Assembly (NCBI GenBank): GCA_041158505.1 | Contig: JBEBBG010000015.1 | Span: 12,642-76,641 of the forward strand | From: Candidatus Parcubacteria bacterium | GTDB taxonomy: Bacteria; Patescibacteriota; Minisyncoccia; Phycocordibacterales; JAACPR01 | DNA: 64,000 nucleotides | Direction of reading: 5' to 3' | Shown here: positions 20,808 through 60,126 of the stretch, piece by piece | How positions within the stretch are numbered: position 1 is the stretch's first letter | Layout: the number at the start of each line of letters is the position of its first letter | Notes under the pieces: model-generated | The model's database searches: none | Seen by the model: the letters and a program-made list of their open reading frames with translations, nothing else | Told to the model about the DNA's origin: nothing | Program-made: the position numbers and the translations under genes

Positions 20808-21077
20808 ACCTGTTGATAATTAATCTTTTAAACCCAACTACTGTCTCTATTAGGACTGTGGATATGTGTATAACCTGCGGATAGTGTTATTTTACAAGCT
20901 TATTTTGTCCCCACCGAACTGCGTTTGTGTGGGGATAGTTTTGAACTTGTTTGGGATAACGAGCAGTATCCTCTAGCTTACCTACATTTATCCAGTTCTC
21001 AAGCAACCGATTTCCCCTAGTAATCCACAAATATCCCCAATACTTTGCCCTAAAATCAACAACTTATCCACATCTTA
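20808..21077. promoter_or_regulatory. DnaA-box cluster in the dnaA-dnaN spacer (oriC candidate / dnaN promoter region)
   Basis: Perfect TTATCCACA at 21064-21072; 1-mismatch boxes TGTGGATAT at 20857-20865 and TAATCCACA at 21021-21029; weaker boxes at 20876, 20951 and 20988. Confidence 0.55.
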
Positions 21078-22436: not shown

Positions 22437-22549
22437 ACGTTGCAACGGTAAACGTGTGCCTATTATATACTCGAGCGCCAACTGGGAAACTTGTTAAAAA
22501 AACTAGTTTATGTTAAAACGATGTTCACGAGACGAAATAAGTAACGCAT

Positions 22550-25200: not shown

Positions 25201-25239
25201 ATGGAGTTATTATACCTTTAAAAAAAGTATGTGAGCGGA

Positions 25240-25953: not shown

Positions 25954-25956
25954 ACG

Positions 25957-26394
25957 CTAAAAACCAAGGTCCACAATGAAATCTCCAGGACCTCCCGTTC
26001 CCAAGATGAGGTTGAGGACATAAATACAAACAAGGGCTATAGCGAGACCGCCAAGTGCTGCTGTAATTCTGTCTTTTCCTTCTGATTTACCAAACAACGA
26101 CTCGGTTCCCATATATTGAACTCCTCCAACTACAAGCATGATGACCGCAAGAATAATGGTAATACTGACAAGCCATTTGAAAAGCTGAGCCAGCATCTGT
26201 GGCAGCGAACCCCCAAAGTTGACACCGCTAATTGACTGGTACCCACCTCCCCCTTGAATGTTCTGTTGCTCAGGGCTGACAGGCGCTTCTTGTGCATGAA
26301 GCACCGCAACTCCTTGCACAAAGAGCAATGATGCAACACAAAACGCGGTCACTCCTTTTTTAAAATACGGTAACATTGCCTGTTTGAAGTTCAT
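25957..26394 (-). CDS. VirB2/TrbC-like pilin candidate
   Basis: 145 aa: about 33-aa signal peptide (cleavage after HAQ/EA), then two hydrophobic helices (LFKWLVSITIILAVIMLVVGGV and ITAALGGLAIALVCIYVLNLIL) separated by a short loop: T4SS pilin architecture. Confidence 0.45.
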   Translation of the reverse strand: MNFKQAMLPYFKKGVTAFCVASLLFVQGVAVLHAQEAPVSPEQQNIQGGGGYQSISGVNFGGSLPQMLAQLFKWLVSITIILAVIMLVVGGVQYMGTESLFGKSEGKDRITAALGGLAIALVCIYVLNLILGTGGPGDFIVDLGF

Positions 26395-27412
26395 TTTCTA
26401 GGGTTTCATCTCCAACAACATCTAGTGCAAAGTTAATCTTAGCATCTTGTAAGATGTTACTCAGGTGGTTGGTCCCCACATTAATTCTTGAAATACCACT
26501 TTTCGCCTTTCCTCTGTTTGTAAAGGTGAGCTTCGATCCAAGCGTTGGTAGATCAATTGGTTTTTCATTCTCTGTCCAGGAATACTCGATTGAGGCATCA
26601 TCACGGGATGATGCAGAAAAGAAGTAAGGAATAGCTACTAAACCAACCTCCTCCCTGTCAAAACGGAATCGTGAAGTAATTGCTCGTTCAAAAAGGTTTC
26701 CAAAAAGAGGGTTGCTCTCATACACGAGCACGGAAGTGTTTTTTGGTGTGACTTCGATTCTTTTCTGTGCTTGCACGCCCCCATTTACCGTCTCCACCAC
26801 TACAGTTACAAAGAAAGGGGTTGGAGCAAGGTTTCCAACAAAACTAATTGTATCTTTTCCAACACCTGATGCTTGCTGAAGTACTTGCCCATTTTTTTCC
26901 CATGTGTAGACAAGTTCTTTTGAAGAGATTTTTGTCCCACCCGTACGGATGTCTGGAATTGCCGCAATTGTCACAAGGGATTGTGGTGTGAAAAGAGACC
27001 TTCCTTTATAGAGCGGGGGTGTATAGGTGTCTGCTTCAACAAGCAAATCAACTGCCCCTGGAGTAAGGGTTATGCTGTCTTCATATGTTTTTCCATTTGA
27101 ACCAACAACACGAACTGAAACTGTTTGTGTTTGCCCAACTGCTGGTGTTGAAAAAATGAAAGTTCGAAGACCCAGCCCTGACGAGGTCTGACCGTCGCTC
27201 GTGTTCCAGGTTATGGTCGAGCGCCCAAGATCGATTGCGTAATTTTCTACTGTTGCTGTCACACTACTGTTTGCTGAGGGGATGCTTGGGCTTAGGGTGG
27301 TTGAAAGAGATCCGGTAAAAATATCTGGAGCAATTTGAGCTTTTGCGGCAGGTACGCCGAGTAAGAACAAAAACGCCAGTATGATCAAATAAAAAGCGGC
27401 GCGCTTAAACAT
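26360..27412 (-). CDS. secreted protein of unknown function (T4SS-like cluster)
   Basis: ATG at 27412 gives MFKRAAFYLIILAFLFLLGVPAAKA signal peptide; Ser/Thr-rich, beta-rich mature part. The track ORF is N-extended to 27448. Confidence 0.5.
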   Translation of the reverse strand: MFKRAAFYLIILAFLFLLGVPAAKAQIAPDIFTGSLSTTLSPSIPSANSSVTATVENYAIDLGRSTITWNTSDGQTSSGLGLRTFIFSTPAVGQTQTVSVRVVGSNGKTYEDSITLTPGAVDLLVEADTYTPPLYKGRSLFTPQSLVTIAAIPDIRTGGTKISSKELVYTWEKNGQVLQQASGVGKDTISFVGNLAPTPFFVTVVVETVNGGVQAQKRIEVTPKNTSVLVYESNPLFGNLFERAITSRFRFDREEVGLVAIPYFFSASSRDDASIEYSWTENEKPIDLPTLGSKLTFTNRGKAKSGISRINVGTNHLSNILQDAKINFALDVVGDETLENELQTGNVTVF

Positions 27413-27482
27413 ACATCCATTGTAGCAGAGATAAAAGCGTGGTCTCAACTAGTTTGCACGCAGGGTGTTCGTGTTTTCAAAA

Positions 27483-28049
27483 CTAGGCAGCTGTTCTGCT
27501 AGAAACGTACGCATCAATGTTTTGATTAAGTCTTGCAACTTTTTTCGGAACAAACCTTTGAACCTCATCCAAAATAAACCAGAAAGCCTTTACTACTTTT
27601 GTGTGGTGATAGTGAACAGAGAGAATCAAAAACGTGTTGGCGGTGATGACGTCGTTAAAAGGGATGGCATCACTGATTGCAAAAAGTACAAGCATGAGCA
27701 TTATTTTTCGAAGGATAATCTTCTGAGTTATCCTGCTTATCGTGCCGCTTTCTTTTCCAAAAAACCAGAAAAAATTTATAACCCAAGTTAGTATTTTAAA
27801 AATCCAGTAAACAACAACACCAACACCTGTTAACGAAAGAAGGGACGCCGCTATAGAGAGGGTGTCAAAAATTGCATTTATTAAAACAATAAGTGTTGGG
27901 AATGGTGGTAGCTTTGGACGGTTTTCTAGAAGTTGAATAGACGCATCCCGATCAATATCAGTCGCAAATGTTTCTTTAAAGCGCCCCTGAAACTCTCTAA
28001 GGTGACGTTGGCTAGAACGAGCGTGGCGCACTATATTTCCGTCAGGCAT
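27483..28049 (-). CDS. polytopic membrane protein (T4SS-like cluster)
   Basis: Three to four TM segments (TLIVLINAIFDTLSIAASLL, VVVYWIFKILTWVINFFWFF, IMLMLVLFAI). ATG at 28049 (MPDGNIV); the track start at 28064 is GTG. Confidence 0.45.
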   Translation of the reverse strand: MPDGNIVRHARSSQRHLREFQGRFKETFATDIDRDASIQLLENRPKLPPFPTLIVLINAIFDTLSIAASLLSLTGVGVVVYWIFKILTWVINFFWFFGKESGTISRITQKIILRKIMLMLVLFAISDAIPFNDVITANTFLILSVHYHHTKVVKAFWFILDEVQRFVPKKVARLNQNIDAYVSSRTAA

Positions 28050-28053
28050 ACCC

Positions 28054-29925
28054 CTATCGTACACCCTTAATCTCTAGTCCACCACGAAGAGCTTCTGGAT
28101 TTGCCATACCACCAGATGCGCGGAGTTCTTCTTTTGCACGCTTAATTTGCAGCACCTGTGATGGGTCTGAGGTGATGATCTGGTCTTCAGTGTATGAGGC
28201 GATAATTTTAATCGCAATGTGCTTGATGCCAGCAAAGAAGATTCCCTCTCCCACTCCAGACTCAAGGAGAAGATACTTCTCTTCCTCGGTGAGGTTAAAG
28301 GTTTGCTGAATCATATCGATTGCAGTCGGTGATTGTTTCAAGAGGAGCTGGATTGATGAGTTGGTGATGATCGGCATACCGTATGGCGATCGAAGGAAGT
28401 CCTCAACGTCTTGGGTAATGGTAGACATACCGAGATAGTATTTTCGTCCTCGTTTTGCAAGCCCAAAGAGGAACGACGCGGTGTCGTCTGATTTCATCAT
28501 CCACCACGCCTCATCGATTACGAGCAGTCGCTTTTTGAGCTCTTTGCGCACAGCATTCCAAATGAAGTGCGTCACAAGGTACATTGCAACCGGCTTAAGT
28601 TCATCTTCCATGTCTCGAAGCGAGAACACGATGAAGCGCTTGTTTACGTCGATGTTTGTTGGTTTGTTGATGAAACCTGCCCAGGTACCACGTGTGTACT
28701 TTGAAAGCTTTTGAGCCATACTCTCCCCTCCCTCCATGCCGGAGAGCACATACTCGAAGTCAGAAAGAAGTGGTGGTTCAATATTTGAGAAATCACTTTC
28801 GGGAGTAATGTCTTTAAGCGCGTACGTTTCAGAAATCGCGCGATCAACGAGCGCATCTTCCTCAGGGGTGAGTCCACCAAGCATGAGTCGGAAAAGACCA
28901 ACAAGGTTCACAATATTTGATCGGAGCACGTCACCTGCAGATTCATCTGGTGTTGGTGGTGCAAGGTCAAACGGGTTGATGTGGTGATCTGAAGTAAGAG
29001 AAATATTGAAGTAGCGCCCGCCTGTTGCTTCCGCAAGGAATTCATATTCACGTTCCGGGTCGATTACAATGACGTCGGTGTCGAGCATCAGGGTGCGCAA
29101 GATCTCGAGCTTTGATGCGTACGATTTACCAGAACCAGCCTTTGCAAAGGTAACTGAGTTGTAGTTTTCAAGACTGAATCGGTCAAAGAGGACGAGCGAG
29201 TTGTTGTGTCGGTTAATACCAAAGAGAATTCCCTTATCCGAGGTAAGGTCAAACGAGATGAATGGAAAGAGGCTCGAGAGTGGTGCTGAGTTGAGCTTTG
29301 AATGCACGCCGAGAAGATCTTGCCCTGTTGGAATAACGGTCTTAAATGCCTCCTCCTGCTGGAAGAGTGCAGGCTTTACGTACACCAACTTTGCTTCGAG
29401 AATCGACTTTACCTCAGAATCGAACTTGTCGAGCTCATCTTTGTTGTCCGCATAGATGCTGATATAGAGACCAACATCAAAGATTTTCTCTTGTGCCTGC
29501 TGGAGGTTGTCACGGAGAATTTCAAGGTCTTGGTATGCGGTGTCGAGTACAGGATCGCGTACAAGCCCCTTCTCTTCTCGGGTGTGAATCTGGCTCTGCA
29601 CTTCGGCTACTTTCTTTTTAAATTGTCGAAGGATGGTTGCGGTATCGATTGGGTGCACAAAAATCGATACATCAAATACTTTGTCGAGGTTGATGATTGG
29701 TGCAAACCACGAGTCTGAAAGGAAGCGTGGGTACGAGATAACGAAGAACGTGCGCACCATTTTGTCACCAAGGTTGATGTCACGAGGGCTCATCTTGAGC
29801 GCTGAAGGCGCAATCACGTCTTGTAGCTCAAGCACGCCCGCCTCGTAAATTTCTTGTGGAAGAAATGACGTAATGTCAGGTGTTTTTGGAGCTTCCTTTT
29901 TCTTTAGAAAATCAAAGAGGGCCAT
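28054..29925 (-). CDS. T4SS ATPase VirB4/TrbE/PrgJ family, ATPase portion
   Basis: VirB4 N-region RTFFVISYP...FVHPID; Walker A FAKAGSGKSYA; Walker B LLVIDEAWWM; C-terminal TrbE-type domain. Starts at an ATG one codon after the in-frame TAG that ends the upstream ORF. Confidence 0.8.
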   Translation of the reverse strand: MALFDFLKKKEAPKTPDITSFLPQEIYEAGVLELQDVIAPSALKMSPRDINLGDKMVRTFFVISYPRFLSDSWFAPIINLDKVFDVSIFVHPIDTATILRQFKKKVAEVQSQIHTREEKGLVRDPVLDTAYQDLEILRDNLQQAQEKIFDVGLYISIYADNKDELDKFDSEVKSILEAKLVYVKPALFQQEEAFKTVIPTGQDLLGVHSKLNSAPLSSLFPFISFDLTSDKGILFGINRHNNSLVLFDRFSLENYNSVTFAKAGSGKSYASKLEILRTLMLDTDVIVIDPEREYEFLAEATGGRYFNISLTSDHHINPFDLAPPTPDESAGDVLRSNIVNLVGLFRLMLGGLTPEEDALVDRAISETYALKDITPESDFSNIEPPLLSDFEYVLSGMEGGESMAQKLSKYTRGTWAGFINKPTNIDVNKRFIVFSLRDMEDELKPVAMYLVTHFIWNAVRKELKKRLLVIDEAWWMMKSDDTASFLFGLAKRGRKYYLGMSTITQDVEDFLRSPYGMPIITNSSIQLLLKQSPTAIDMIQQTFNLTEEEKYLLLESGVGEGIFFAGIKHIAIKIIASYTEDQIITSDPSQVLQIKRAKEELRASGGMANPEALRGGLEIKGVR

Positions 29926-29928
29926 ATG

Positions 29929-30570
29929 CTAATTGTGTGGTAATGGTTTCTCAACATCACCTGGATTAAAGAGTCGGTAAAAGATTTCAATCACCTCTTC
30001 GGTGCCAAGTTGCACTGCGCGAATACCGCTGCGGACGATTCCAGACCGCACAACGGCGATACGCTGTTCAAGCTGGCTGCGTGCTTCCTCAAAATCTTCA
30101 GTCTTCATGTTTGCGTCTTTTTTGCCACCAAACGGATTGCTTACCTTTTTGCCGCGAACATCAATCGTTGGTGGTGTGTACGGAACTGTAATGTAAAAGG
30201 TCTTGGTCATAATGTTGGTGCGCTCAGTAAACGCTTGGATGAATCCAATGTACTCTTTGATTTGCACGCGCATGAGGTCGTTAATTTGCTCTCGCTCGCG
30301 AGCTTCAAGCATTGCTACGTATGGACGAATGTCGAGACGTCTCGACTGGATGAAGATTTGAACCGAGAAATTGAGCGAGTTGAGAAACTGTTGGAATTGG
30401 AAAATGATTGCACTCTGCTCCTCTTCTGATTTGAGCGCAAAGTTGATTGAAGAGGTCATGAGGATTGCGCGCATTGAACCATCCTTGAGCACAAGAATAC
30501 CGTCACGCACTTCACGCACGGGGACAAAGTCCTGTGTTGTTTTTGAGTTTGCTGCTGCCATATCGTGCAT
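29929..30570 (-). CDS. VirB4-family N-terminal domain protein; same frame as the ATPase ORF, separated by a single TAG
   Basis: VPVREVRDGILVLKDGSMRAILMTSSINFALKSEEEQSAIIFQFQQFLNS matches the conserved N-terminus of Gram-positive VirB4-like ATPases; frame continuity with 28054..29925 checked by coordinates. Confidence 0.5.
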   Translation of the reverse strand: MHDMAAANSKTTQDFVPVREVRDGILVLKDGSMRAILMTSSINFALKSEEEQSAIIFQFQQFLNSLNFSVQIFIQSRRLDIRPYVAMLEAREREQINDLMRVQIKEYIGFIQAFTERTNIMTKTFYITVPYTPPTIDVRGKKVSNPFGGKKDANMKTEDFEEARSQLEQRIAVVRSGIVRSGIRAVQLGTEEVIEIFYRLFNPGDVEKPLPHN

Positions 30571-30605
30571 TCATTATACACGACTGTACGAAACGAAAAC
30601 GTGGG

Positions 30606-31043
30606 TTACTGACGTGTGCGCGGATCAACGTCCTGGAGTGTTTGCAACGTCTCGTGAATATCGAGTCCCCACGATAAATCTTTGAGCTTACTGTTTGTTA
30701 CTTTTGGCACCTCTTGCGTAACGTACTGAATGACTTCGGCCGCTTTCTTCTCAGGTGTTTTTTCCCGTTTTTTCCAGAGGTATAACTTTGGTGAAAAGAT
30801 GAAACGAAACGCTGTTTCGAGGACCACAACAAGCGGCCGATTGTTTACTTGGTAAAAGGCAAAGCCAAAAAAGAGGAGTACTACTGGTAAGCCAATGACA
30901 ATTGCTAGAACCTTGGGCATGGTAGTCCAAAAGATGAAGGCGAACGCCAACCCCGCAGCCGAGTACAGGAACTGTTTAAGGGTGAGTGGTCCAAAAATCT
31001 TATCTTCTACTTCAAGGAATTGTGGTACTTGGTATTTTGCCAT
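30606..31043 (-). CDS. PrgI-family (VirB3-like) small membrane protein
   Basis: MAKYQVPQFLEVEDKIFGPLTLKQFLYSAAG then two TM helices: the PrgI-family signature (VPxDLxxEDKIFGxLTLRQ) and the canonical position immediately upstream of VirB4. Confidence 0.6.
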   Translation of the reverse strand: MAKYQVPQFLEVEDKIFGPLTLKQFLYSAAGLAFAFIFWTTMPKVLAIVIGLPVVLLFFGFAFYQVNNRPLVVVLETAFRFIFSPKLYLWKKREKTPEKKAAEVIQYVTQEVPKVTNSKLKDLSWGLDIHETLQTLQDVDPRTRQ

Positions 31044-31055
31044 AGGGGTACGTAT

Positions 31056-31910
31056 TTAGGCGATTGGCTCTCGGTATGGGTCTGTTGAGCCGTATGTTCG
31101 AGTTGTTGGCGTGGCTGGTGATGCTTCACCACTAACTGTACTCTCTGATGTTTCAAGTTCTAGACGGTTCTTTGCGGCGGTAACTGGCTGACCAAGCTTT
31201 GCTGCAACAATTGGATCAAGGTGTTTTGGTACAAACTGCTTAACTGCGGCAAGAGGCGGCGCTGGTTGCGTTTTTACTATAGGAGCAGGGCTCATCTGGG
31301 GAGCGGTTTTTGGAGTTGTTGGTAGGGTGATTACTTTCTCGATATGTGCTGGTACGGCAGTGTGAGGAGCTGGTGTTCCCGCAAGGAGTATCGGTTTGCT
31401 CTGTGGAATTGGCTTACCCTGGAAGAGCGCAACCGGAGAAACATCTAACTTTTTTGTTGAATAGCGAGCGGTACTTCCCTTTGATGGCAAGGTGACCTCG
31501 TTGTCTTCTTTGACTGCGGCTGCAATATCATCATCAGCCTTTGTGAGCTCGTTTGAAACACGCTCAACATCGTCGATGGTGTCATGAGATTCTGTAATGC
31601 CAACTAGTTTTTCACGAATGTTTCCAAAAATGTCGCGCTCGATATCGGCCGCGATTGCTGCGGCTTGTTCATCTGATACCCGTGCACCCTCTTTGGCGTT
31701 CTCAACAAAGGCATCCGGATCCTCCATGCCAAGCATGGTGACAAAGATGAGGCTCTCAAGTGCTGCCCCTTGATCGATGTGTAGCTGGTACTTCTCGACG
31801 ATGTTTCGAACTTTCTCTTGCCAGTTTGAATTAAGCACAATATCCTGCACTACTGGCGGAAGTGTGTTGAACTGTTCTTTAATGAGGTTTTCTGTTTCTT
31901 GCGAGATCAT
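31056..31910 (-). CDS. hypothetical protein with Pro-rich C-terminal half (T4SS-like cluster)
   Basis: 284 aa, no TM; acidic helical N-domain, then a PxxP-rich spacer. Confidence 0.45.
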   Translation of the reverse strand: MISQETENLIKEQFNTLPPVVQDIVLNSNWQEKVRNIVEKYQLHIDQGAALESLIFVTMLGMEDPDAFVENAKEGARVSDEQAAAIAADIERDIFGNIREKLVGITESHDTIDDVERVSNELTKADDDIAAAVKEDNEVTLPSKGSTARYSTKKLDVSPVALFQGKPIPQSKPILLAGTPAPHTAVPAHIEKVITLPTTPKTAPQMSPAPIVKTQPAPPLAAVKQFVPKHLDPIVAAKLGQPVTAAKNRLELETSESTVSGEASPATPTTRTYGSTDPYREPIA

Positions 31911-31913
31911 AGG

Positions 31914-33980
31914 CTATTCTTCTTTTTTATCACCCTTCGCGGCTTTAAGTGCTTTTATGATGTCGTATTTAACATCACGTTCTGCTTTAGCGAGTTCCTT
32001 TGCAATCGTTTTACCAGCAGCTGTTCGAGCAGGCTGCACCCATTTTAACTTACCAGCACCGCTTCGATTAAGCTGATCCCTATAGGTTTCAATGTAAACA
32101 TTCTTACTCTTATTGTATTTCTCTTTTGCTTCTCGAACGTCTTTCTTGGCAGTAGCGATTGATGCTTTTGAAGCATTAGTATCAATGAGGGTTTGGAGAG
32201 TTGCTTCCTTTGCATCAAGGTCTGCTTTATTTGGCTTAACAATATCATTACTGTCTGATACTTGCCCGATTGCTTCTGCTGCAAAGTTTGTAATTTTTTC
32301 TCGATTACTCTTAATGCTCGATGCATATCCTCCCTTACCCCCTGCAGCTCCAAATGCTTTATCCCCTACACCGGTTGCACTTGCGACTCCGGTAAATGTT
32401 TTTGAATTTCGAGCATCAAATGAGGCGCTGCCAATTCCTCGAGTTGTTTGAAGAGCAAATGCACCAATACGAGATTTTGCAGCCCACTCTTTAAATCCAT
32501 CTTTATCGGCAGCCCAGTTTGCAACGCGTCCAGGGAATTGTCTTCCAGCAAAAGCTGCGGTTCCAATAGCTGCACCACCAACTTTTGATGTAATGTTGCC
32601 GCTAAGTTTTGCAAGCGCTTTGTTTCCCATTGAGTGCATTTGTTTTGCTGCATAGAGGGCTCCAAGAAAGAGGCCAATAACGATACTGTATCGAACTAAA
32701 GGACTTGCTGCTGATGCAACCATTTTTACTATTGTTGATTGGACGCCCGCACTTGCCGCCGAAAAACCAACCTGAATACCAGAGGGGCTTGAAGTTTTTA
32801 CTATATCGAGTATTCCCTCTCCTCCGCTTCCTCCCATAAGCTTAAAGGCGATGAGTAGAAATAGTAGAAAAACAGGCAATGAAAAAGCATTTCCTATGAG
32901 TGAATCCCACCACTCCTGCGACATTTTTTTTGTCATTGGAAAGGCTTTTCCTACAAAACCAATTGGAGACAGAATAAGTAGAAAAACAATGATGAGGGTT
33001 CTCGCAATCAACATGAAAGCCCCAATAAACATCACAATCGCAAGTATGATGACGACCGCAATGGTCATTACAACACCAACACTTACCTGTATGAGTTGAT
33101 CAGTCGCACCGCTGTAGGTACTTTCATTGTTGCCAACTAATCCTGCACTATCCTTGCTTATTTTTAAGGCGTCTGTCTTTTCTAGTATAAAAGAACTTAC
33201 ACTTCTATCTCCAAGAACATTTTCAATGCTCTTCATGACAGAAAGAGCAAATTGGTTTGAGACGTCAACGATGACAGCCGCAAAAAAGAAGCTAAAGTTT
33301 ACGAGTAGGGCGGCAATAATGACATTTTTGAGAGCCTTTTTTGCTTCGCCGCTCTCTGTTTGTAAAATAAGGTTAATAGCGACGTAGAGTAAGATAAAGA
33401 CAAAACCAATGTTTACTAAGTCTCTAAAGATTTTCCATGCTTCATCTACAGACGCTCGAACGTTGCCACCCTCAGCAACCATAGAACTTAGACCGTAGGT
33501 ACTGATATTGATTGCTGTGTCGAGAAAAAAACCAGCAATGTAGAGTGTTAGTGATGCAACCCAGGTAATTGCAACTCCTATAGCACTAATTCCTGTCGTA
33601 AGACCTTTTAAAACAGTGGCAACTGTTTTCTCTAAACCAGATTTTTTAACTGTTTCAACAGCCGCTGCCCCGTCGTTAAATGCGTTTACCGGGTTTAGAC
33701 CTCGACCAAGTGCGTTAAAGAAGCCTTGGGCGCCCTCTTGCCCACTAATGGCCTTATTGTAGGACGCATTTTTGTCTAAACCGTTTAAACGAGATTGTAT
33801 GTAGTCGTCAACTAGTGCGCTGCGCAAGCTTGGCGGAATATTTGCTTCTCCAAAAATTTGCTGGGCTTCTTGTGCGTAGTTTTGATTTTGGGCATTTGCC
33901 GTGCTCGGTGCGTTAACAAAAAAAAGTCCAAGTAATACAGTACACAAAAAAATATGTTGTAAAACTCGACGCGCTCTCAT
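31914..33980 (-). CDS. large polytopic membrane protein, VirB6/TrbL/PrgH-like candidate
   Basis: 688 aa: signal peptide, periplasmic N-domain, at least six TM helices in the central region, Lys-rich cytoplasmic tail. Assignment is by architecture and context, not sequence motif. Confidence 0.45.
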   Translation of the reverse strand: MRARRVLQHIFLCTVLLGLFFVNAPSTANAQNQNYAQEAQQIFGEANIPPSLRSALVDDYIQSRLNGLDKNASYNKAISGQEGAQGFFNALGRGLNPVNAFNDGAAAVETVKKSGLEKTVATVLKGLTTGISAIGVAITWVASLTLYIAGFFLDTAINISTYGLSSMVAEGGNVRASVDEAWKIFRDLVNIGFVFILLYVAINLILQTESGEAKKALKNVIIAALLVNFSFFFAAVIVDVSNQFALSVMKSIENVLGDRSVSSFILEKTDALKISKDSAGLVGNNESTYSGATDQLIQVSVGVVMTIAVVIILAIVMFIGAFMLIARTLIIVFLLILSPIGFVGKAFPMTKKMSQEWWDSLIGNAFSLPVFLLFLLIAFKLMGGSGGEGILDIVKTSSPSGIQVGFSAASAGVQSTIVKMVASAASPLVRYSIVIGLFLGALYAAKQMHSMGNKALAKLSGNITSKVGGAAIGTAAFAGRQFPGRVANWAADKDGFKEWAAKSRIGAFALQTTRGIGSASFDARNSKTFTGVASATGVGDKAFGAAGGKGGYASSIKSNREKITNFAAEAIGQVSDSNDIVKPNKADLDAKEATLQTLIDTNASKASIATAKKDVREAKEKYNKSKNVYIETYRDQLNRSGAGKLKWVQPARTAAGKTIAKELAKAERDVKYDIIKALKAAKGDKKEE

Positions 33981-34041
33981 TACATTCTAGTATAGCAGTA
34001 GAAGATGTATTGACACACCCTATCTGTGAATACATCTTCTC

Positions 34042-35577
34042 CTATGTTCTGTCCCCTAGTATGCTAGATTGCTTTGAAGAATTAGGAAGAAGCTTTGACG
34101 GCGGCTTTGTTAGTTGTTCTTGAAGAGCATCCAAAAGCTCCTCACCCTTCTCGTCGATATTTACGAGGCGTTGCTCTGCTAATCCTATTCGGTTTTCTGA
34201 AACCATTTTGATAAAGCTGCCCGGAATCTCAACGTCCCCGGTGTCTTGATCTTTTTTGCTCAAATATCCGTCGTTCATCTCGTACTCAGCTAGTTGCAGG
34301 TTAATACTGTTTGCTTGAATAGTTTCAATTTCTGCTTGTGCAGATAAGAAGCGGAGTAAATCACTGTTGACTGGATTAAGCCGAACAGCCAGTGTGTCCC
34401 AAGGATTTTTGCTCTCTTGCTCCTGTTGCTTTTGCTGTTCATGAATAGGTACACCATATTCGCTGGCCATGAGATTTTCTACGACGGTGTCACCTTGGCT
34501 GCCTTGTTGAGATTTTTTATATTCATCAATAAAAGACTCGAAATGCATTTGGGATAGATCACTGAGTGCCTGAGGGAGATTTTGAACAAATGCAGGGTTA
34601 CCACCAAAAGCTGTGGTGATGTAATTCCCTGAGCTCTCCACAACCGCGGCGGCCATCGCATCAGCAACACAGTTATCTGCAGCGTCGTATGATTTACTAC
34701 TTCCTCCTGGTTCCCCCGCGTCTTTACGCACAAGTTCCCACACGTACGCGTTAATGGTGAGGGTGTCGACGGGGACAGCATATTCCCCTGTTGCTTGAGA
34801 TGTGTTGCTTGATAAGCCACTTCCTTCCCCTCCTCCAATACCACTGGTGGTTTCTTTGTTACACTCAGTTGTTGCTTCTGTAAGGCTTGTGGGTTTGCCG
34901 TCGCCATCCGCATCACCGGTTGCACGAATAATGTCGCCACCCTGCTCCGGCTTCTCTGGTTCGTTTATAGGAACTTCATTTGGTTCAAATTCCTGAGATT
35001 GACCAGCGTTTCCAAGAGGGCTGCCTCCCGAATTTCCTCCAAGTAAATTCTGGACTGCCTGCGGTACACCCCCCTGTCCTCCTTGCTGTCCTCCGCCAAG
35101 CAGGTTCCCTAACGGGTTATTCCCTCCTCCGGGTAGTTGTGGCAATTGTGGCAACTGCGGCGTACTTCCTCCTTGGTTACCAAGGTTAGGAAGATTCACA
35201 TCTGCTTTTACATCTACTTCACAGGTTGCTTCTGCGCGCTCCCCGTTTGAAACAACGATAACGGTTGCCTTTTTTGTGCCGTAGCTACCGTAGCTGGTAG
35301 TGACCTGGGGCTTATCAACTGTTGTAATATTTACGCCACGCCACCGATACGCAATTTTACTTTCTGTACCTCGAACAGTTGCTCGCCAGATTACTGGCTC
35401 ATCACGTCCAACCTCTGCTTTTGAGGGAGCACAGGTTACTTTAAGCGTCGTTGCTTGAGCGTACCCAAGGTGTGGCAACAGCTGCACAACAAGTAGACCA
35501 CCGAGAATGGTAACAACTAACCCGCTTAAAACGAGCGGCTTGTATAGGATTTTTGTTGTTTTTAGAAATCGTTCCAT
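34042..35577 (-). CDS. membrane-anchored protein with Gly/Gln/Pro-rich low-complexity linker (T4SS-like cluster)
   Basis: N-terminal TM, PQLPQLPQLPGGGNNPLGNLLGGGQQGGQGG repeat tract, globular C-terminal domain. Confidence 0.45.
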   Translation of the reverse strand: MERFLKTTKILYKPLVLSGLVVTILGGLLVVQLLPHLGYAQATTLKVTCAPSKAEVGRDEPVIWRATVRGTESKIAYRWRGVNITTVDKPQVTTSYGSYGTKKATVIVVSNGERAEATCEVDVKADVNLPNLGNQGGSTPQLPQLPQLPGGGNNPLGNLLGGGQQGGQGGVPQAVQNLLGGNSGGSPLGNAGQSQEFEPNEVPINEPEKPEQGGDIIRATGDADGDGKPTSLTEATTECNKETTSGIGGGEGSGLSSNTSQATGEYAVPVDTLTINAYVWELVRKDAGEPGGSSKSYDAADNCVADAMAAAVVESSGNYITTAFGGNPAFVQNLPQALSDLSQMHFESFIDEYKKSQQGSQGDTVVENLMASEYGVPIHEQQKQQEQESKNPWDTLAVRLNPVNSDLLRFLSAQAEIETIQANSINLQLAEYEMNDGYLSKKDQDTGDVEIPGSFIKMVSENRIGLAEQRLVNIDEKGEELLDALQEQLTKPPSKLLPNSSKQSSILGDRT

Positions 35578-36527
35578 ACGTTTCCAAGTTCGTTACTATC
35601 AAAAAGTATACCATTCGATTTGAAGTATAGAGCGAGAGATTTCAGGTGTTCACGTTGTGTGGTTGGAAGCGCGTCGTAGTTTTGTTGTGCAAGGAGGCTG
35701 TAAACAGGATCGTTGCCTGTAAGGAGGAGCTTTGGAAGGTATACAGAGGCGCGGTATAAGTTATTAGTAAAATCAAGATGTGCCGCTACTGCTCCGTCTG
35801 GTACGGGCATCATTGAAAGCTCTTCGGCAAAGCTTTGGTAGTAAGCTTTAAGTGTGTTGACGTAGTCCTCGGGGGTGGTGTTTTTTGAAACCGAAGCAAG
35901 AGCAATTGTGTAACGAGTGTAGGTTCCAGCAAACGCGTTGCCATACTGGCGAACCTTTTCTGTATCGGCGTCACTAACTGTTTGGAGCTCAAAAACAGAG
36001 TATTTGTCAGGAATACTCACCTCTTCGCGGGCCTCCGCCGCAATCTGAGCCGTAAGAGCCGGAATTGTGTCATCTGTCATTTTTCCAGACTGCTTTAAAA
36101 GCAAGTAGTTTGAAATGAGCTTTGAGCTAACGATTTCAGAGAGGCTGCCGGGATTATAAAACAGAGAAGGTGTTGAGCTGCTTGTTGCAAACAGCATGTC
36201 GTCTGGTCCTGGGGTGAGCGGATCTCTGCCGCCGCGTGCTTCTGTCCCATCGAGCGCACCATCGCCGTCAGTGTCGGGGTTATTGCTGTCTGTGCCGCGC
36301 ACGGTTTCCTCCCAATCAAAGAGCCCATCATTGTCGGCGTCTGGGGCAACAAGGGTGTTGTTTGGAAAGATAGTTTCAGCTGTAAGCTCTACTGCTGGTG
36401 TCTCTGGTGCTGATGCTCGTTTTTCCGCGATGGCGTTTTTAATTTGATCAACAGCAATAATCCCTAGGGTAATCACGGCAACGGTTCCAACAATCATGAT
36501 TCGATTTTGATTCGCGCTTCGTGCCAT
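35562..36527 (-). CDS. membrane-anchored protein with thrombospondin-type-3-like Ca-binding Asp repeats; first gene of the T4SS-like operon
   Basis: N-terminal TM; DADNDGLFDWEETVRGTDSNNPDTDGDGALDGTE fits DxDxDGxxDxxE calcium-binding repeats. ATG at 36527. Confidence 0.5.
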   Translation of the reverse strand: MARSANQNRIMIVGTVAVITLGIIAVDQIKNAIAEKRASAPETPAVELTAETIFPNNTLVAPDADNDGLFDWEETVRGTDSNNPDTDGDGALDGTEARGGRDPLTPGPDDMLFATSSSTPSLFYNPGSLSEIVSSKLISNYLLLKQSGKMTDDTIPALTAQIAAEAREEVSIPDKYSVFELQTVSDADTEKVRQYGNAFAGTYTRYTIALASVSKNTTPEDYVNTLKAYYQSFAEELSMMPVPDGAVAAHLDFTNNLYRASVYLPKLLLTGNDPVYSLLAQQNYDALPTTQREHLKSLALYFKSNGILFDSNELGNVWNDF

Positions 36528-50996: not shown

Positions 50997-51119
50997 TGAT
51001 TTTGTAGGGTGTGGTGAACGGTTGGGTTCGTTTTTAAATTACAGTAAAATAATGATTTTGTCAATTAATTTCGATGTGAGATTTAGGACTGTCTCTGTGC
51101 TATAATATTGTGCGACACT

Positions 51120-52046
51120 ATGGCAGCCAATCAAATTCAGGATTTAAAGCAGCAATTTCTTGAGTATATTGAAATTGAGCGTGGTCGCAGCCTCAAAACC
51201 GTTGAAAACTACGACCGGTACCTAACCCGCTTCCTTGGTCACATAAAAGCAACAAAACCTGCCGATATTACCGAGCAGGCCGTCAGGGAGTTCCGTTTGT
51301 GGCTCAACCGCCAGCCGGGCACAAAGGACACCATGAAGCGTCGGACCCAAAACTACTACCTCATTGCATTGCGCTCATTCCTTAAATTCTTGGCGAAACG
51401 CGGTGTTACCTCCCTGCCACCAGAGCGCATTGAGCTTGCAAAGACAGAAGCGCGCGAGCTCGACCTGATTTCAACAGATGAGCTGCTCAGGCTTTTGAAC
51501 GCTCCAGACACCACCACTCTTCGCGGCCTTCGCGATAAGGCGATGCTTGAACTTTTCTTTTCTACTGGTCTTCGTGTCTCGGAACTTGCGTCACTCCCCC
51601 GAGATCTTGATATTGAGCGTGATGAATTCTCGATTCGCGGTAAGGGAGACAAGGTTCGCGTGGTGTTTGTGTCTGATGAAGCACGACAAGCGGTGAAGGC
51701 GTACCTCGCAAAGCGTGATGATATGGACGATGCGCTGTTTGCACAGGTGCCAAGTAAGGCGGGTAAAAATGTGCTCGCAAAGCGCGGTTCACTTCGCATC
51801 ACACCACGTTCAATTGAGCGTATTGTGCGCCACTACGCCACGAAGTCCGGTATTTCAAAGAAGGTAACGCCACACGTTATTCGGCACAGCTTTGCAACAG
51901 ACCTGCTCTCAAATGGTGCTGATTTGCGTTCAGTGCAAGCGCTCCTTGGTCATGCAAATATCACAACTACGCAAGTCTACACACACGTTACTGACAAGCA
52001 TTTGCGCGACATTCACAAGAATTTCCACGGCAAGCGCCGCAAATAG
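51120..52046 (+). CDS. tyrosine recombinase XerC/XerD type
   Basis: Catalytic-domain motifs HVIRHSFATDLL...LLGHANITTTQVYTHV; ATG at 51120 preceded by an extended -10 TGcTATAAT at 51098-51106. Confidence 0.8.
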   Translation: MAANQIQDLKQQFLEYIEIERGRSLKTVENYDRYLTRFLGHIKATKPADITEQAVREFRLWLNRQPGTKDTMKRRTQNYYLIALRSFLKFLAKRGVTSLPPERIELAKTEARELDLISTDELLRLLNAPDTTTLRGLRDKAMLELFFSTGLRVSELASLPRDLDIERDEFSIRGKGDKVRVVFVSDEARQAVKAYLAKRDDMDDALFAQVPSKAGKNVLAKRGSLRITPRSIERIVRHYATKSGISKKVTPHVIRHSFATDLLSNGADLRSVQALLGHANITTTQVYTHVTDKHLRDIHKNFHGKRRK

Positions 52047-55848: not shown

Positions 55849-55918
55849 AACGTAAAGGACATTCAGCAAACACAACTGTGGATAAAGGACAGTTATCCAC
55901 ATGGTATGTCCTTTACAC
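55849..55918. promoter_or_regulatory. nested palindrome carrying two perfect inverted DnaA boxes upstream of the surface-protein gene
   Basis: cGTAAAGGACAT...TGTGGATAA(55877-55885)aggacagTTATCCACA(55893-55901)tggtATGTCCTTTACac; a further GTAAAGGACA copy at about 56190. Confidence 0.55.
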
Positions 55919-56256: not shown

Positions 56257-57729
56257 TTACTCTACGTGATGCTTCTTACGTAGCTGCTTTACTTCCTTTT
56301 CATCTTCGAGAGAAAGCTTTTCTTTCCCTTGTTTTCCAAGTCTTTCAAGATCTTCAAATGGTAGCTGGTTTAGCTCTAGTGCCCGTTTTTCAAGGTACTT
56401 CTCTGTATTTCGCTCTGGTTCTTCAAGGATTTCATCAAAAAGCGTGTACAGTATATGTCCAATCTTTGGTCCCTTATCAACTCCCATGTTCATAAGATCT
56501 GTCCCGTCGATTTTTAACATGGTCACAGAAAGCGGTGCCCGAAGCGCTTCTTCAATCATAGATTGATACTTTCTGAAGCGGTATGGCTCTTCTTTTGGTC
56601 GTCCCGTACCAATTCGGTCGCATTTCCTAAGGTTTACAAGGTCCCAGATATTATCTTCTCCCACTTTTGCAATGATGCGCCGGACAGCAGAAAGTGTGAT
56701 TTGCTCAGGATCAGCAAAAAACATGTGCCAACGCACAAGCGTGGTTACTTTTTGAATGGTTTCACGTGAAAAACGTAGATTTTCCAGAGTTTCACGTGTA
56801 ACTCGCGCACCCACCACTTCGTGGCCAAAGAAAGTTGCCTTTTTCCCTACCATTCTCTTTGTGTGAGGTTTTGCAACGTCATGAAACAGTACAGCAAGGC
56901 GTAGCTCTAAATCGTACCCCTTATCGGCGGCGTGCTGTAAAGCTCGTAGAGAATGTTCAAAAACATCGTATTTGTGAGCCTGTGTTTCTTGTGAAACACC
57001 GACCATACCCTCAAGAGCTTCAGAAACATGACGAAGCAGGCCAAGCCTTTGCATCATTACAAGTCCGAGCATTGGGTTATCAGACATAATAAGCTTTACA
57101 AACTCCTCCCTAATCCTTTCACGTGAAACGTTCCCCAGTAGGTCCCCCATTTCTTCAATCGCCTTTGCGGTATCTGATTCAATAAAGAAACCAAGCTCAG
57201 CGCTAAATCGAACGGCGCGCATAATTCGAAGGGCATCTTCTTCAAAGCGTTCCTGTGGATTTCCTACAGTACGTAGTTTTTTGGCCACCAAATCATCCTG
57301 TCCTTTATAAGGATCAACAATCTGTCCTTTAGAAAGTGCGATGGCATTTACTGTAAAATCACGTCGAGACAGATCGTCCCCTATCTTTTTGCTAAAGGTC
57401 ACCGAGTCCGGATGACGATTATCTGAGTACTTTGATTCAAGCCGGTATGGGGTAACCTCTACAATCTTCATTCGTTCATCATCGCTGCGCGTCTTTACCC
57501 CCACTGTTCCGAAGGTGTTTTCGTAGAAAGAATCAGGAAAAATCTCCTGGATTTCTTCAGGGGTAGCATTTGTTGTGGCGTCCCAATCTTTTGGTTCTCG
57601 GCCCAAAATCAGGTCCCGGACACAGCCTCCTACGAGGTACGCCTCGAAACCAGCGGCCTCAAGCCCCTCAAGCACTTCCCCAACTGGCTTTGGTATGTCA
57701 TACTTGCCTTGCTTCATACGTACCGCCAT
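56257..57729 (-). CDS. cca: CCA-adding tRNA nucleotidyltransferase with HD domain
   Basis: GGCVRDLILGREPKDWD head-domain motif; HD motif (LFHDVAKP); 490 aa. Confidence 0.85.
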   Translation of the reverse strand: MAVRMKQGKYDIPKPVGEVLEGLEAAGFEAYLVGGCVRDLILGREPKDWDATTNATPEEIQEIFPDSFYENTFGTVGVKTRSDDERMKIVEVTPYRLESKYSDNRHPDSVTFSKKIGDDLSRRDFTVNAIALSKGQIVDPYKGQDDLVAKKLRTVGNPQERFEEDALRIMRAVRFSAELGFFIESDTAKAIEEMGDLLGNVSRERIREEFVKLIMSDNPMLGLVMMQRLGLLRHVSEALEGMVGVSQETQAHKYDVFEHSLRALQHAADKGYDLELRLAVLFHDVAKPHTKRMVGKKATFFGHEVVGARVTRETLENLRFSRETIQKVTTLVRWHMFFADPEQITLSAVRRIIAKVGEDNIWDLVNLRKCDRIGTGRPKEEPYRFRKYQSMIEEALRAPLSVTMLKIDGTDLMNMGVDKGPKIGHILYTLFDEILEEPERNTEKYLEKRALELNQLPFEDLERLGKQGKEKLSLEDEKEVKQLRKKHHVE

Positions 57730-57777
57730 TGTAGCAGCATGTAGATATTTTGCGACTTTGGCGTATACTGAGCAAAC

Positions 57778-57852
57778 GCTCTCGTGGTGAAATGGATATC
57801 ACAGCGGTCTTCGGAACCGTCGTTGGGGGTTCGAATCCCTCCGAGAGCACCA
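57778..57852 (+). tRNA. tRNA-Arg (anticodon TCG), CCA encoded
   Basis: Acceptor gctctcg/cgagagc, D-stem gtga/tcac, anticodon loop cuUCGga, T-arm ggggttcgaatccct, 3' ACCA; TATACT -10 at 57766. Confidence 0.8.
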
Positions 57853-57855
57853 AGT

Positions 57856-58110
57856 ATGGCAAAGAAAAAGTTCGTTTGTACCAATATCGTTTGCAAGAAT
57901 CCAAATCTTAACCTTATTCTAAGCCTTATTGCTGTTGTTTGGTTGTGGCGAGGTATTTGGGGGCTTACTGACGCAGTCGTTTTTGCTTCTACCCCGTTTG
58001 ATCTCGAGCACTTACTCGGGTATGGCGTCCCAATCCTCATTGGTATTGCGTACCTATACTTCAACGATTACTCAATTTCAGAGCTCACCCACGGGACTCC
58101 AAACGATTAA
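57856..58110 (+). CDS. hypothetical small membrane protein
   Basis: ATG at 57856 right after the tRNA; MAKKKFVCTNIVC... then two hydrophobic helices; followed by a weak hairpin (58112-58134). The track ORF 57784..58110 overlaps the tRNA and is N-extended. Confidence 0.4.
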   Translation: MAKKKFVCTNIVCKNPNLNLILSLIAVVWLWRGIWGLTDAVVFASTPFDLEHLLGYGVPILIGIAYLYFNDYSISELTHGTPND

Positions 58111-58190
58111 AAAATCCCCCTTGTAGGGGGATTTGGGCGTTGTCCTGATTGCGTATTTAAAGAAAAGCTATATAATTCCTCAGACCACAC

Positions 58191-58261
58191 GCGGGTATAG
58201 TTTAGTGGTAGAACGAGTCCTTGCCAAGGATTAGATGGGAGTTCGATTCTCCCTATCCGCA
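58191..58261 (+). tRNA. tRNA-Gly (anticodon GCC)
   Basis: Acceptor gcgggta/tatccgc, anticodon loop uuGCCaa, T-arm gggagttcgattctccc; TATAAT -10 at 58173-58178. Confidence 0.8.
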
Positions 58262-58384
58262 CCGATACATTATTGTAGTGCCTTAACCATCAGTCGAGCT
58301 GCGTAGCAAACAAGTCCTTAAAGAAAAAGACATAGCACGTATTGGTCAGCAAGGTTGCTGTAAGGCAAATCGAAAATGTCCTAG

Positions 58385-58447
58385 TAATCCCCATATTTTT
58401 CAATAAAATTGTGGAAAACTGTGGATAACTCTGGGGATATGTGTATA
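58385..58447. promoter_or_regulatory. dense DnaA-box cluster followed by an AT-rich tract (alternative oriC or DnaA-titration site)
   Basis: Perfect TGTGGATAA at 58421-58429; 1-mismatch boxes TGTGGAAAA (58410-58418) and TGTGTATAA (58439-58447); weaker boxes at 58386 and 58432; then about 200 bp that looks AT-rich by eye. Confidence 0.5.
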
Positions 58448-58563
58448 AAAGACAGCATTTTTAGACAGTTTTCAAGGCCACTTTTCCTTTAAAAATGGCT
58501 TTGTTGAGCTCTATTTTACTTTTTTAAGACATTGTTTTACAAAATAGCCTTATTTTAGTATAT

Positions 58564-58658
58564 GTTTCACGTGAAACACTACTTGTTTTCATAAAATAAG
58601 CACTTTTTCTTTAATAAAGTTTCATGTGTAACGGTATATGATCGTTTCACTTGAAAAC
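58564..58658. promoter_or_regulatory. three tandem GTTTCACGTGAAAC-type palindromic operator-like sites upstream of the yraN-like gene
   Basis: Perfect 14-bp palindrome gtttcacgtgaaac at 58564-58577; variants gtttcatgtgtaac (58619-58632) and gtttcacttgaaaac (58643-58657). Confidence 0.5.
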
Positions 58659-59040
58659 AAGAAAGGATATTGGGAATTACGGAGAACAAGAAGCTGTTGA
58701 TTTTTTAGAGAAAAGGGGCTTTAAAGTGCTAAAAAGAAACTACAGACTCTTCTTTGGAGAAATCGACATTATAGCTGAGCGGGCTGGGGTTATTCACTTT
58801 GTGGAGGTAAAAACCGTTTCACAAGAAACATTTTCACGCGGAATCAAGCCCGAAGATCATGTTACACGTGAAAAGATAAGCAGAATTATGAAGGTTGCAG
58901 AGTTTTTTCTGGCAAACAGTAATCTTTTTAACAGAAAAACCCAGATTGACGTGGTCTCGATTGTTAAACCTCAAGATGTGTTACACATGAAACCGGTTAT
59001 ATATCTGTTTGAGCACGTTACTCGAGACCGTCTATCCTAG
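58651..59040 (+). CDS. YraN-family (UPF0102) PD-(D/E)xK endonuclease
   Basis: GEQEAVDFLEKRGFKVLKRNYRLFFGEIDIIAERAGVIHFVEVK matches the YraN core (GE.AE...L...G..IL.RN.R...GEIDLIA....LVFVEVK); TTG start at 58651. Confidence 0.7.
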   Translation: MKTRKDIGNYGEQEAVDFLEKRGFKVLKRNYRLFFGEIDIIAERAGVIHFVEVKTVSQETFSRGIKPEDHVTREKISRIMKVAEFFLANSNLFNRKTQIDVVSIVKPQDVLHMKPVIYLFEHVTRDRLS

Positions 59041-59173
59041 ACGATGGGGAATTCTAGTGCTACTATGACGCTACACCACAAGGTTATATATAGTCATTTT
59101 TCTCTATATACGTGCTGTGTCGGTGTACCCATATTCACCCGTGTGCCGTTTACACGGGGTGTAAAGAATGAAA

Positions 59174-59246
59174 CGGGGCGTGGTGTAACGGCTAACATGC
59201 TCGGTTTGGGACCGAGTGACTCCGGGTTCGAATCCCGGCGCCCCGA
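59174..59246 (+). tRNA. tRNA-Pro (anticodon TGG)
   Basis: Acceptor cggggcg/cgccccg, anticodon loop uuUGGga, T-arm ccgggttcgaatcccgg. Confidence 0.8.
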
Positions 59247-59253
59247 CTACAAT

Positions 59254-60126
59254 ATGAAACTGGTAACGCATGAAGGAAGCTTCCATCTTGACGACCTCTT
59301 TGCTGTTGCGACTATTACGCTCCTCTATCCAGATATTGAGATTGTACGGACAAGAGACGCAAGCAAGTTTGGGGACGCTGATTTTGTTGTAGATGTTGGG
59401 GATATTTGTGATCCTGCGACAAACCGATTTGATCATCACCAGCATGGTGGGGCAGGAGTTCGTGAGAACGGTGTGCCATACGCGAGTTTTGGTCTGGTCT
59501 GGAAAAAGTACGGCAAAATGGTGTCTGGGGAAGAGCGAATCGCTGATTTGGTAGATAAAAAGATGGTGCAGCCGATTGATGCAGCTGATAACGGCTTCAA
59601 TATGTACCGGGAAACAAAACCTGGCCTTTCACCTTACTTGCTCGACAACGCATTCAAGGCGCTGACGCCAACGTGGCGAGATCCAGAGACGGTTGATGAT
59701 ACGTTTGCCAATTTGCTTCCACTGGCACAAGAGATTTTGCGTCGAGAGATTAAGAAGGCCCAGTATTTCTTTGAGGACACGGAAATTGTGAAGGAGGCGT
59801 ACCGTGTTGCTGAGGATAAGCGAATTATTGTCCTTGAGCATCCAATGGCGTGGAAATCGGTGATTTCGAGGAAGCGTGAGCCAGTATATGTGATTCATCC
59901 AAATCAGATGACTGGGGAGTGGATTGTGGCATGTGTACGAAAGTCTCCACAGTCACACGAAAACCGAAAGCTGCTACCAAAGGCGTGGGCAGGGAAGCGT
60001 GGTAAGGAGTTAGAGCAAGCAACTGGTGTGCAGGGCGCTGAAGCTTGCCACAATAAGCGCTTCATTGCGACAGCCTGGACACGTGAGGCCGCGATTAAGC
60101 TGGCACAGTTGGCGCTGCAGGCGTAA
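59254..60126 (+). CDS. MYG1/UPF0160-family metal-dependent hydrolase (paralog 1, canonical)
   Basis: ATG at 59254; LVTHEGSFHLDDLFAVATITLLYPDIEIVRTRD...VVDVGDICDPATNRFDHHQHG reproduces the MYG1 N-terminal metal-site motifs. The track ORF 59044..60126 reads through tRNA-Pro and is N-extended. Confidence 0.75.
   Translation: MKLVTHEGSFHLDDLFAVATITLLYPDIEIVRTRDASKFGDADFVVDVGDICDPATNRFDHHQHGGAGVRENGVPYASFGLVWKKYGKMVSGEERIADLVDKKMVQPIDAADNGFNMYRETKPGLSPYLLDNAFKALTPTWRDPETVDDTFANLLPLAQEILRREIKKAQYFFEDTEIVKEAYRVAEDKRIIVLEHPMAWKSVISRKREPVYVIHPNQMTGEWIVACVRKSPQSHENRKLLPKAWAGKRGKELEQATGVQGAEACHNKRFIATAWTREAAIKLAQLALQA

Follow-up and report, generated by a model that had tools for sequence, protein, structure and literature searches.

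A probable origin-proximal parS cluster written into cca and yraN of a Parcubacteria chromosome

A palindrome family around cca and yraN

What might recognise a family of palindromes packed around two genes and three tRNA genes, most of whose copies lie within coding sequence? The question is posed by one locus in a 64-kb stretch of DNA (the window, by which we mean the whole of the sequence analysed), which is chromosomal DNA of an uncultured, ultra-small bacterium of the Paceibacteria/Parcubacteria group, with identical genes on JGI metagenome contigs. The initial annotation had seen there an operator array for an unknown dimeric regulator. The evidence assembled below leads to a different and, in our judgement, highly probable reading: that the palindromes are chromosomal parS, ParB/Spo0J loading sites on a Paceibacteria (Patescibacteria/CPR) chromosome.

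The genes proposed for the locus, cca and yraN, agree with their Pfam domains, and tRNAs for Arg, Gly and Pro are confirmed:

56257..57729, minus strand: cca, CCA-adding tRNA nucleotidyltransferase, with Pfam PolyA_pol, RNA-binding and HD domains and four parS-like sites
57778..57852, plus strand: tRNA-Arg(TCG), within the array
58191..58263, plus strand: tRNA-Gly(GCC), a conserved neighbour of the DnaA-box block described below
58651..59040, plus strand: yraN, UPF0102 PD-(D/E)xK nuclease family by Pfam, an intact gene with a TTG start and three parS-like sites
59174..59247, plus strand: tRNA-Pro(TGG), marking the conserved yraN-side limit of the array

Some minor features accompany these genes. 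Between tRNA-Arg and tRNA-Gly lies an 84-aa ORF at 57856-58110 that has no Pfam match and is followed by a hairpin terminator at 58116-58131; by tblastn it matches contigs of the same organism only (L001, L002), with no match among 80 relatives. Beyond yraN, a mechanically called ORF of 360 aa (59044-60126) crosses tRNA-Pro; the JGI call of a MYG1/UPF0160 protein is 290 aa long and starts at 59254. A gene for a XerC/D-type tyrosine recombinase (51108-52046) lies 6.5 kb from the palindromes, with synteny kept in contigs of the same organism.

The palindrome family was delimited by searching the whole window for the 14-mer GTTTCACGTGAAAC with at most two mismatches. Ten matches were found, every one inside 56759-58993, with none in the remaining ~62 kb. 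Dinucleotide shuffling gives an expectation of 0.47 ± 0.66 with a maximum of 2, and none of 100 shuffles reached the observed ten; the density that had been called striking is thus borne out, and the family is a non-random, binding-site-like one. Scored over 16 positions, the window holds the perfect match plus seven further sites with at most three mismatches, against 0.66 expected. Exact half-sites (GTTTCAC/GTGAAAC) are concentrated in the same place, 8 of the window's 15 falling in the one 2.35-kb stretch that contains the cluster. Nine of the ten copies are degenerate, with two to four mismatches to the 16-mer, and all lie within 2.2 kb; seven are intragenic (four in cca, three in yraN), and the other three are intergenic or overlap the start of yraN:

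58563..58578: perfect consensus parS TGTTTCACGTGAAACA, intergenic, in the most AT-rich stretch of the window
58618..58633: degenerate parS-like site AGTTTCATGTGTAACG, intergenic, with two mismatches in the 14-mer and four in the 16-mer
58643..58658: degenerate parS-like site CGTTTCACTTGAAAAC, two mismatches in 14, overlapping the yraN TTG start codon (58651)
58815..58830: parS-like site in yraN, GTT TCA CAA GAA ACA = VSQET, immediately after the catalytic EVK motif
58860..58875: parS-like site in yraN, GTT ACA CGT GAA AAG = VTREK
58979..58994: TGTTACACATGAAACC, a parS-like site of yraN that uses the second frame free of stops, VLHMKP
57115..57130: parS-like site in cca, coding strand GTT TCA CGT GAA AGG = VSRER, in the SxERI motif
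56983..56998: parS-like site in cca, VSQET, with the 14-mer copy GTTTCTTGTGAAAC at 56984-56997
56788..56803: parS-like site in cca, VTRET
56758..56773: parS-like site in cca, FSRET

The copies listed in the initial annotation are all in the sequence, namely the perfect 14-mer at 58564-58577, the degenerate copies 55 and 80 bp further on (58619-58632 and 58644-58657), and, to within 1 bp, the coding copies at 56758-56774, 56789-56802 and 57117-57129 in cca and at 58816, 58861 and 58980 in yraN; the copy at 56984-56997 in cca had been missed.

Identity of the 16-mer with consensus parS

The 14-bp palindrome extends to a perfect 16 bp, and the resulting 16-mer at 58563-58578 is an exact consensus parS. 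The consensus used in ParB biochemistry and crystallography is TGTTTCAC-GTGAAACA, and the Noc site (NBS), related to parS, is TATTTCCC-GGGAAATA (10.1101/724823).

Comparison with related genomes sharpens this assignment. The relatives were represented by 80 cca loci from GTDB species representatives (±6 kb of cca) and by 69 dnaA loci (±10 kb, 705 kb); the closest species-level relatives have Cca proteins 74-77% identical to the one in the window. In close relatives (L003, L004, L006) the parS 16-mer is unchanged and its flanks have diverged, and a homologue of the site at 58618..58633, GTTACAYATGAAAC, is conserved. A position profile built from relatives' sites, limited to the 3 kb upstream of cca (n=70), shows G2, T3, T4, C6, A7 and their mirror positions to be near-invariant, with variation mostly at the central CG (CATG, CATATG) and at positions 1, 5, 12 and 16. 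The description of the palindrome as having an E-box-like CACGTG core fails on this point: the resemblance is coincidental, since conservation runs through both arms in full (GTTTCA..TGAAAC) and nothing varies more than the central CG.

Other candidate identities were considered and rejected. The Noc NBS (consensus TATTTCCCGGGAAATA) has A at position 2 and C at position 7, and the relatives' sites have G2 in 66 of 70 and A7 in 65 of 70, a profile of the parS type. A REP/MITE or other mobile repeat does not fit, as the flanks outside the 16-mer conserve nothing beyond AT-richness. Nor does a structured RNA: Rfam at permissive E-values returned only the three tRNAs above threshold, and sub-threshold leader-like matches sit at terminator hairpins.

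An operator array for a dedicated, unknown dimeric transcription factor controlling yraN, and perhaps its neighbours, has some appeal in that three sites fall within 95 bp upstream of or overlapping the yraN start and a palindrome suits a dimeric helix-turn-helix protein. Yet the sequence is identical to the ParB site (10.1101/724823), seven of the ten sites fall inside a pair of divergently placed genes across 2.2 kb, and neither the window nor the relatives have a regulator gene next to the array; in relatives the arrays also survive changes of gene order. The sites are not confined to promoters; a promoter and terminator scan at the palindromes gave nothing significant, and no sigma-70-like promoter overlaps them. 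Seven copies in two differently oriented genes over this span, straddling three tRNA genes, argue for an origin-proximal centromere or loading array and against a promoter operator, which we regard as very unlikely. What survives of the original proposal is a dimeric DNA-binding ligand, which is likely; the unknown regulator and the operator give way to the match with consensus parS. Because the lead points to a known element, it need not be pursued as a new regulon. ParB bound at these sites could still repress yraN incidentally.

Conservation of the array across relatives

The array locus is conserved in relatives whose Cca proteins are 52-77% identical, in the order tRNA-Pro, yraN with its parS sites, best parS, an AT-rich spacer of ~100 bp, DnaA-box block, tRNA-Gly(GCC), tRNA-Arg and cca. 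Synteny of yraN with the array holds in 51 loci, and arrays persist in relatives with a changed surrounding gene order. They typically comprise 5-7 sites in 0.5-0.9 kb, with one to four in yraN and more flanking it, and usually end with one perfect or one-mismatch site. The density of sites with at most two mismatches in 16 is as follows:

3 kb upstream of cca: 0.39 per kb
within cca: 0.42 per kb
rest of the cca loci: 0.029 per kb
705 kb around dnaA in 69 relatives: 0.0085 per kb

A different centromere placement is seen outside the Paceibacteria group. In an outgroup dnaA locus (L145, DnaA 42% identical), three parS sites lie at 713-830, two of them perfect and all within 120 bp, ~5 kb from dnaA.

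Selection on DNA in the coding copies

The coding copies might be by-products of Val-Ser/Thr-Arg-Glu motifs and of codon usage, with only the intergenic palindrome meaningful. Six of the seven do share the frame GTT-TCA/ACA-CGT-GAA, so that the Ser/Thr-Arg-Glu codon reading suggested in the initial annotation holds for those six, and the copy at 57115 coincides in part with SxERI, a motif conserved in CCA enzymes. That annotation had also named comparison with a codon-shuffled expectation as a way to refute its claim. Synonymous codons were accordingly shuffled within each gene, with protein and codon usage held constant (2000 shuffles for the window genes):

cca, window: 4 sites observed, 0.49 expected; 0 of 2000 shuffles reach 4
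yraN, window: 3 observed, 0.21 expected; 1 of 2000 shuffles reaches 3
eight other window genes: 0 observed, about 0 expected
80 related cca genes: 107 observed, 9.1 expected
49 related yraN genes: 69 observed, 10.3 expected

Observed counts stand far above the shuffled expectation, the shuffles giving ~8-15x fewer sites in the window genes and ~7-12x fewer in the relatives, so the refutation does not materialise and codon usage fails as the explanation. In the other window genes, observation and expectation agree at zero or about zero. Codon choice in the peptides concerned is near-fixed, and relatives that have no site have different peptides there. On these grounds the by-product reading is extremely improbable.

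The same pattern can be followed codon by codon. The presence of TGA in one frame of the palindrome leaves only two frames usable, and among relatives the frame GTT-TCA-CGT-GAA-AC accounts for 90 of 107 cca sites and 66 of 69 yraN sites. Inside [VIFLM][ST]RE peptides the codons are GTT in 100%, TCA in 85%, ACA in 100%, CGT in 82% and GAA in 94%; elsewhere in these genes the same codons are used in 29%, 26%, 32%, 23% and 60%, respectively. Alignment columns of cca, read from site-less to site-bearing lineages, change from ISKER to VSRER, from V[ED]Q-N to VSQET (which gains one extra codon), from MTKKI to VTRET and from FPKEL to FSRET, and the relatives with ISKER use varied codons for it. After the EVK motif of yraN, 29 of 50 relatives have V-S-[Y/R/H/Q]-E-T encoded as GTT TCA [TAT/CGT/CAT/CAA] GAA AC: the palindrome arms (GTTTCA..GAAAC) are fixed, and the centre codon and its amino acid drift. 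Selection in the coding copies therefore acts on the DNA itself, and the peptides have changed to fit the site.

The sites differ in how widely they are distributed. Relatives widely share the intergenic founder site and the yraN site next to EVK, and the cca sites and the second yraN site are confined to sub-clades (for the second yraN site, 58860..58875, that of the window, with 4 of 50 relatives), a distribution that suggests stepwise growth of the array.

Position relative to the probable origin

The most probable replication origin of the window lies elsewhere, between dnaN (19707-20807) and dnaA (21078-22481), with rpmH, rnpA and yidC upstream of dnaA:

20808..21077: predicted oriC, the 270-bp dnaA-dnaN spacer, with at least five DnaA boxes in both orientations

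Left of 20.8 kb the plus-strand GC3 skew is -0.05 to -0.39 for nearly all genes, in either orientation; at dnaA it is +0.36, and it is mostly positive thereafter. Among 26 related dnaA loci with both flanks available, 21 show the same GC3-skew sign flip across a dnaA-dnaN spacer with DnaA boxes, the mean passing from -0.10 to +0.11. DnaA boxes and sign flip together make this spacer, at ~21 kb, the best candidate for oriC. The parS cluster would then lie ~37.5 kb away on one replichore, which is origin-proximal, as expected for parS; in a relative represented by a 476-kb contig, roughly 28 kb separate dnaA from cca.

Right of dnaA, a long run of minus-strand genes (23881-36527), mostly without Pfam match, is oriented head-on to the inferred direction of replication. 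It includes a TraG/VirB4-like P-loop ATPase (28054-29925) and is possibly a Patescibacteria type IV secretion cluster or island.

The DnaA-box block beside parS

The perfect parS is accompanied at short range by a group of predicted DnaA boxes, separated from it by AT-rich DNA:

58410..58448, minus strand: tandem DnaA-box block of TTTTCCACA, TTATCCACA, a degenerate TATCCCCA and TTATACACA, 115 bp from the perfect parS
58449..58562: the AT-rich spacer that separates this block from the perfect parS

The order within the block, TTATACACA-TATCCCCA-n3-TTATCCACA-n-TTTTCCACA, is invariant among close relatives (for example at 5627-5656 in L003 and 4591-4620 in L070). Phylogenetic footprinting of the intergenic spacer, in an alignment of the window with four close relatives, leaves just two conserved blocks, parS and the 45-bp DnaA-box block GTCTTTTATACACATATCCCCAnAGTTATCCnCAG. 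The block is found in 36 of 80 related loci in constant orientation, with the closest strong parS typically 95-116 bp off. The 200 bp at 58480-58679, centred on the perfect parS, have the lowest GC of the 64-kb window (27%), falling to 23% over 58517-58616.

Palindromes, DnaA boxes and AT-rich spacer could in principle belong to the replication origin itself. TGTTTCACG was at one time put forward by Ori-Finder as a species-specific DnaA box (PMC2275245), the conserved block lies close to the perfect parS in the most AT-rich DNA of the window, and at the cca-yraN locus gene orientation diverges and the local GC skew passes from -0.10 to +0.11. Against this, in the window and most relatives alike the clean GC3 sign flip falls at dnaA-dnaN, and the spacer there has more DnaA boxes. 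In relatives the parS/DnaA-box module coincides with a step in GC3 skew, from ~-0.17 to ~-0.03, in which 25 of 28 loci have the higher value on the right and the sign changes in only 5 of 28. The sign flip at dnaA-dnaN is the ground on which an origin at 58.4 kb was downgraded, and we consider it unlikely. The skew anomaly at the module in the window is local to cca and the next gene; the step in relatives is seen in L003-L082.

Two further observations concern DnaA boxes of the region. The composite motif TTATACACATATCC[A/C]CAG is common to the dnaA-dnaN spacer and to 58431-58448; an inversion between the two DnaA-box clusters was considered and rejected, as the copies are direct repeats and would not mediate one. 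At 55877-55901, two perfect boxes in inverted arrangement (TGTGGATAA n7 TTATCCACA) overlap the ATG (55902) of a gene for a 781-aa PG_binding_1 protein, and relatives again have a box pair downstream of cca, as at 7782 in L003 and at 8216/8226 in L073.

Comparison with characterised parS systems

On the preferred reading, that the palindromes are parS, the cluster belongs to a canonical kind of element, the origin-proximal parS cluster, in a lineage for which it had not previously been described. The founding chromosomal parS is that of Bacillus subtilis, with its protein Spo0J. The B. subtilis consensus, TGTTNCACGTGAAACA, is the same 16-bp palindrome and is likewise present in multiple origin-proximal copies, most of which reportedly lie inside coding sequences. 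Its sites are spread over hundreds of kb, whereas here ten copies, nine of them degenerate, occupy 2.2 kb with no parB gene nearby. In Caulobacter crescentus the parS cluster adjoins parAB; here it is carried by yraN and cca, between tRNA genes, and the best parS and the predicted DnaA-box block stand a fixed ~100 bp apart. The likeness to Caulobacter is in the clustering of parS at distances of a few to tens of kb from the origin and in the DnaA boxes within the centromere region, where DnaA binding enables segregation according to the account of Mera et al. 2014 given in PMC6399470. Many origin-near parS sites are likewise found in Myxococcus xanthus (22), in Streptomyces coelicolor and Listeria innocua (20-23) and in Pseudomonas aeruginosa (four, clustered near oriC). 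Those dense arrays are mostly near-consensus and have larger spans; the present one combines a single consensus site with degenerate satellites and has grown by recoding two genes. Two of its features are worth recording: the extent to which it lies within coding sequence, where recoding can be demonstrated, and its fixed pairing with a DnaA-box block.

A possible analogue of the block at 58410-58448 is provided by the DnaA-box clusters (DBCs) of B. subtilis, which lie outside oriC in oriC-proximal positions and act with Spo0J/Soj in the control of initiation (PMC3245932); the DBCs differ in not being described as coupled to parS at a fixed distance.

Search for ParB and ParA

A scan of the window and related loci for ParB/ParA motifs (GERRxRA, KGGxGKT) found none, and tblastn with B. 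subtilis Spo0J and Soj gave no match in the window, the 80 cca loci or the 69 dnaA loci. Of the two queries, Spo0J was the one checked, and it is 100% identical to the database Spo0J. No ParBc domain was found by Pfam among 40 window ORFs, and ParB is absent from the 7 kb to the left of the window on the JGI contig. In all, neither the window nor ~1.5 Mb of related loci yielded parB, an absence that is uninformative since the DNA searched amounts to just a few per cent of each genome. A protein-database search with Spo0J matched only Bacillus proteins and is likewise uninformative for this lineage. The literature search found no paper linking ParB/parS to Patescibacteria or Parcubacteria.

Proposed mechanism

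The sequences themselves show the match to parS, the clustering, the position near the origin, preservation of the array through the class and selection on the DNA. Binding of ParB to these sites, and all that would follow from it, we infer by analogy with studied ParB proteins (PMC7333895, 10.1101/724823). Nucleation by ParB dimers would take place at the consensus site and less strongly at the satellites; the dimers would then switch to CTP-bound clamps that slide or bridge over the neighbouring few kb to form one partition complex. Such a complex would engage ParA and/or load SMC and so segregate the newly replicated origin region. The three tRNA genes are likely roadblocks to ParB sliding, and our own suggestion is that sites on both sides of them may provide more loading and a continuous partition complex.

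A broader proposal, which we put forward tentatively and think rather less probable than not, is that the Paceibacteria centromere is a class-wide composite in which ~100 bp of AT-rich DNA separate a founder parS from a tandem DnaA-box block, the whole lying between tRNA-Pro and tRNA-Gly. DnaA and ParB would act on the same ~250 bp, and the array would grow by recoding its neighbours, yraN first and then cca in one sub-clade. Were this so, DnaA might license segregation as in Caulobacter, or DnaA titration might be coupled to ParB. How parS clusters arise is an open question in a review of ParABS (PMC7333895), and a module of this kind would offer a traceable natural example of such an origin.

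Implications

The parS assignment locates the predicted centromere of an uncultured lineage with reduced genomes, for which we found no published work on ParB or parS. The locus is also a clear case of a binding-site array imposed on coding sequence, visible as changed amino acids and fixed codons, and the conserved physical coupling of parS with DnaA boxes provides an opening on crosstalk between replication and segregation. For annotation, parS clusters can anchor calls of the origin region and centromere in Patescibacteria MAGs.
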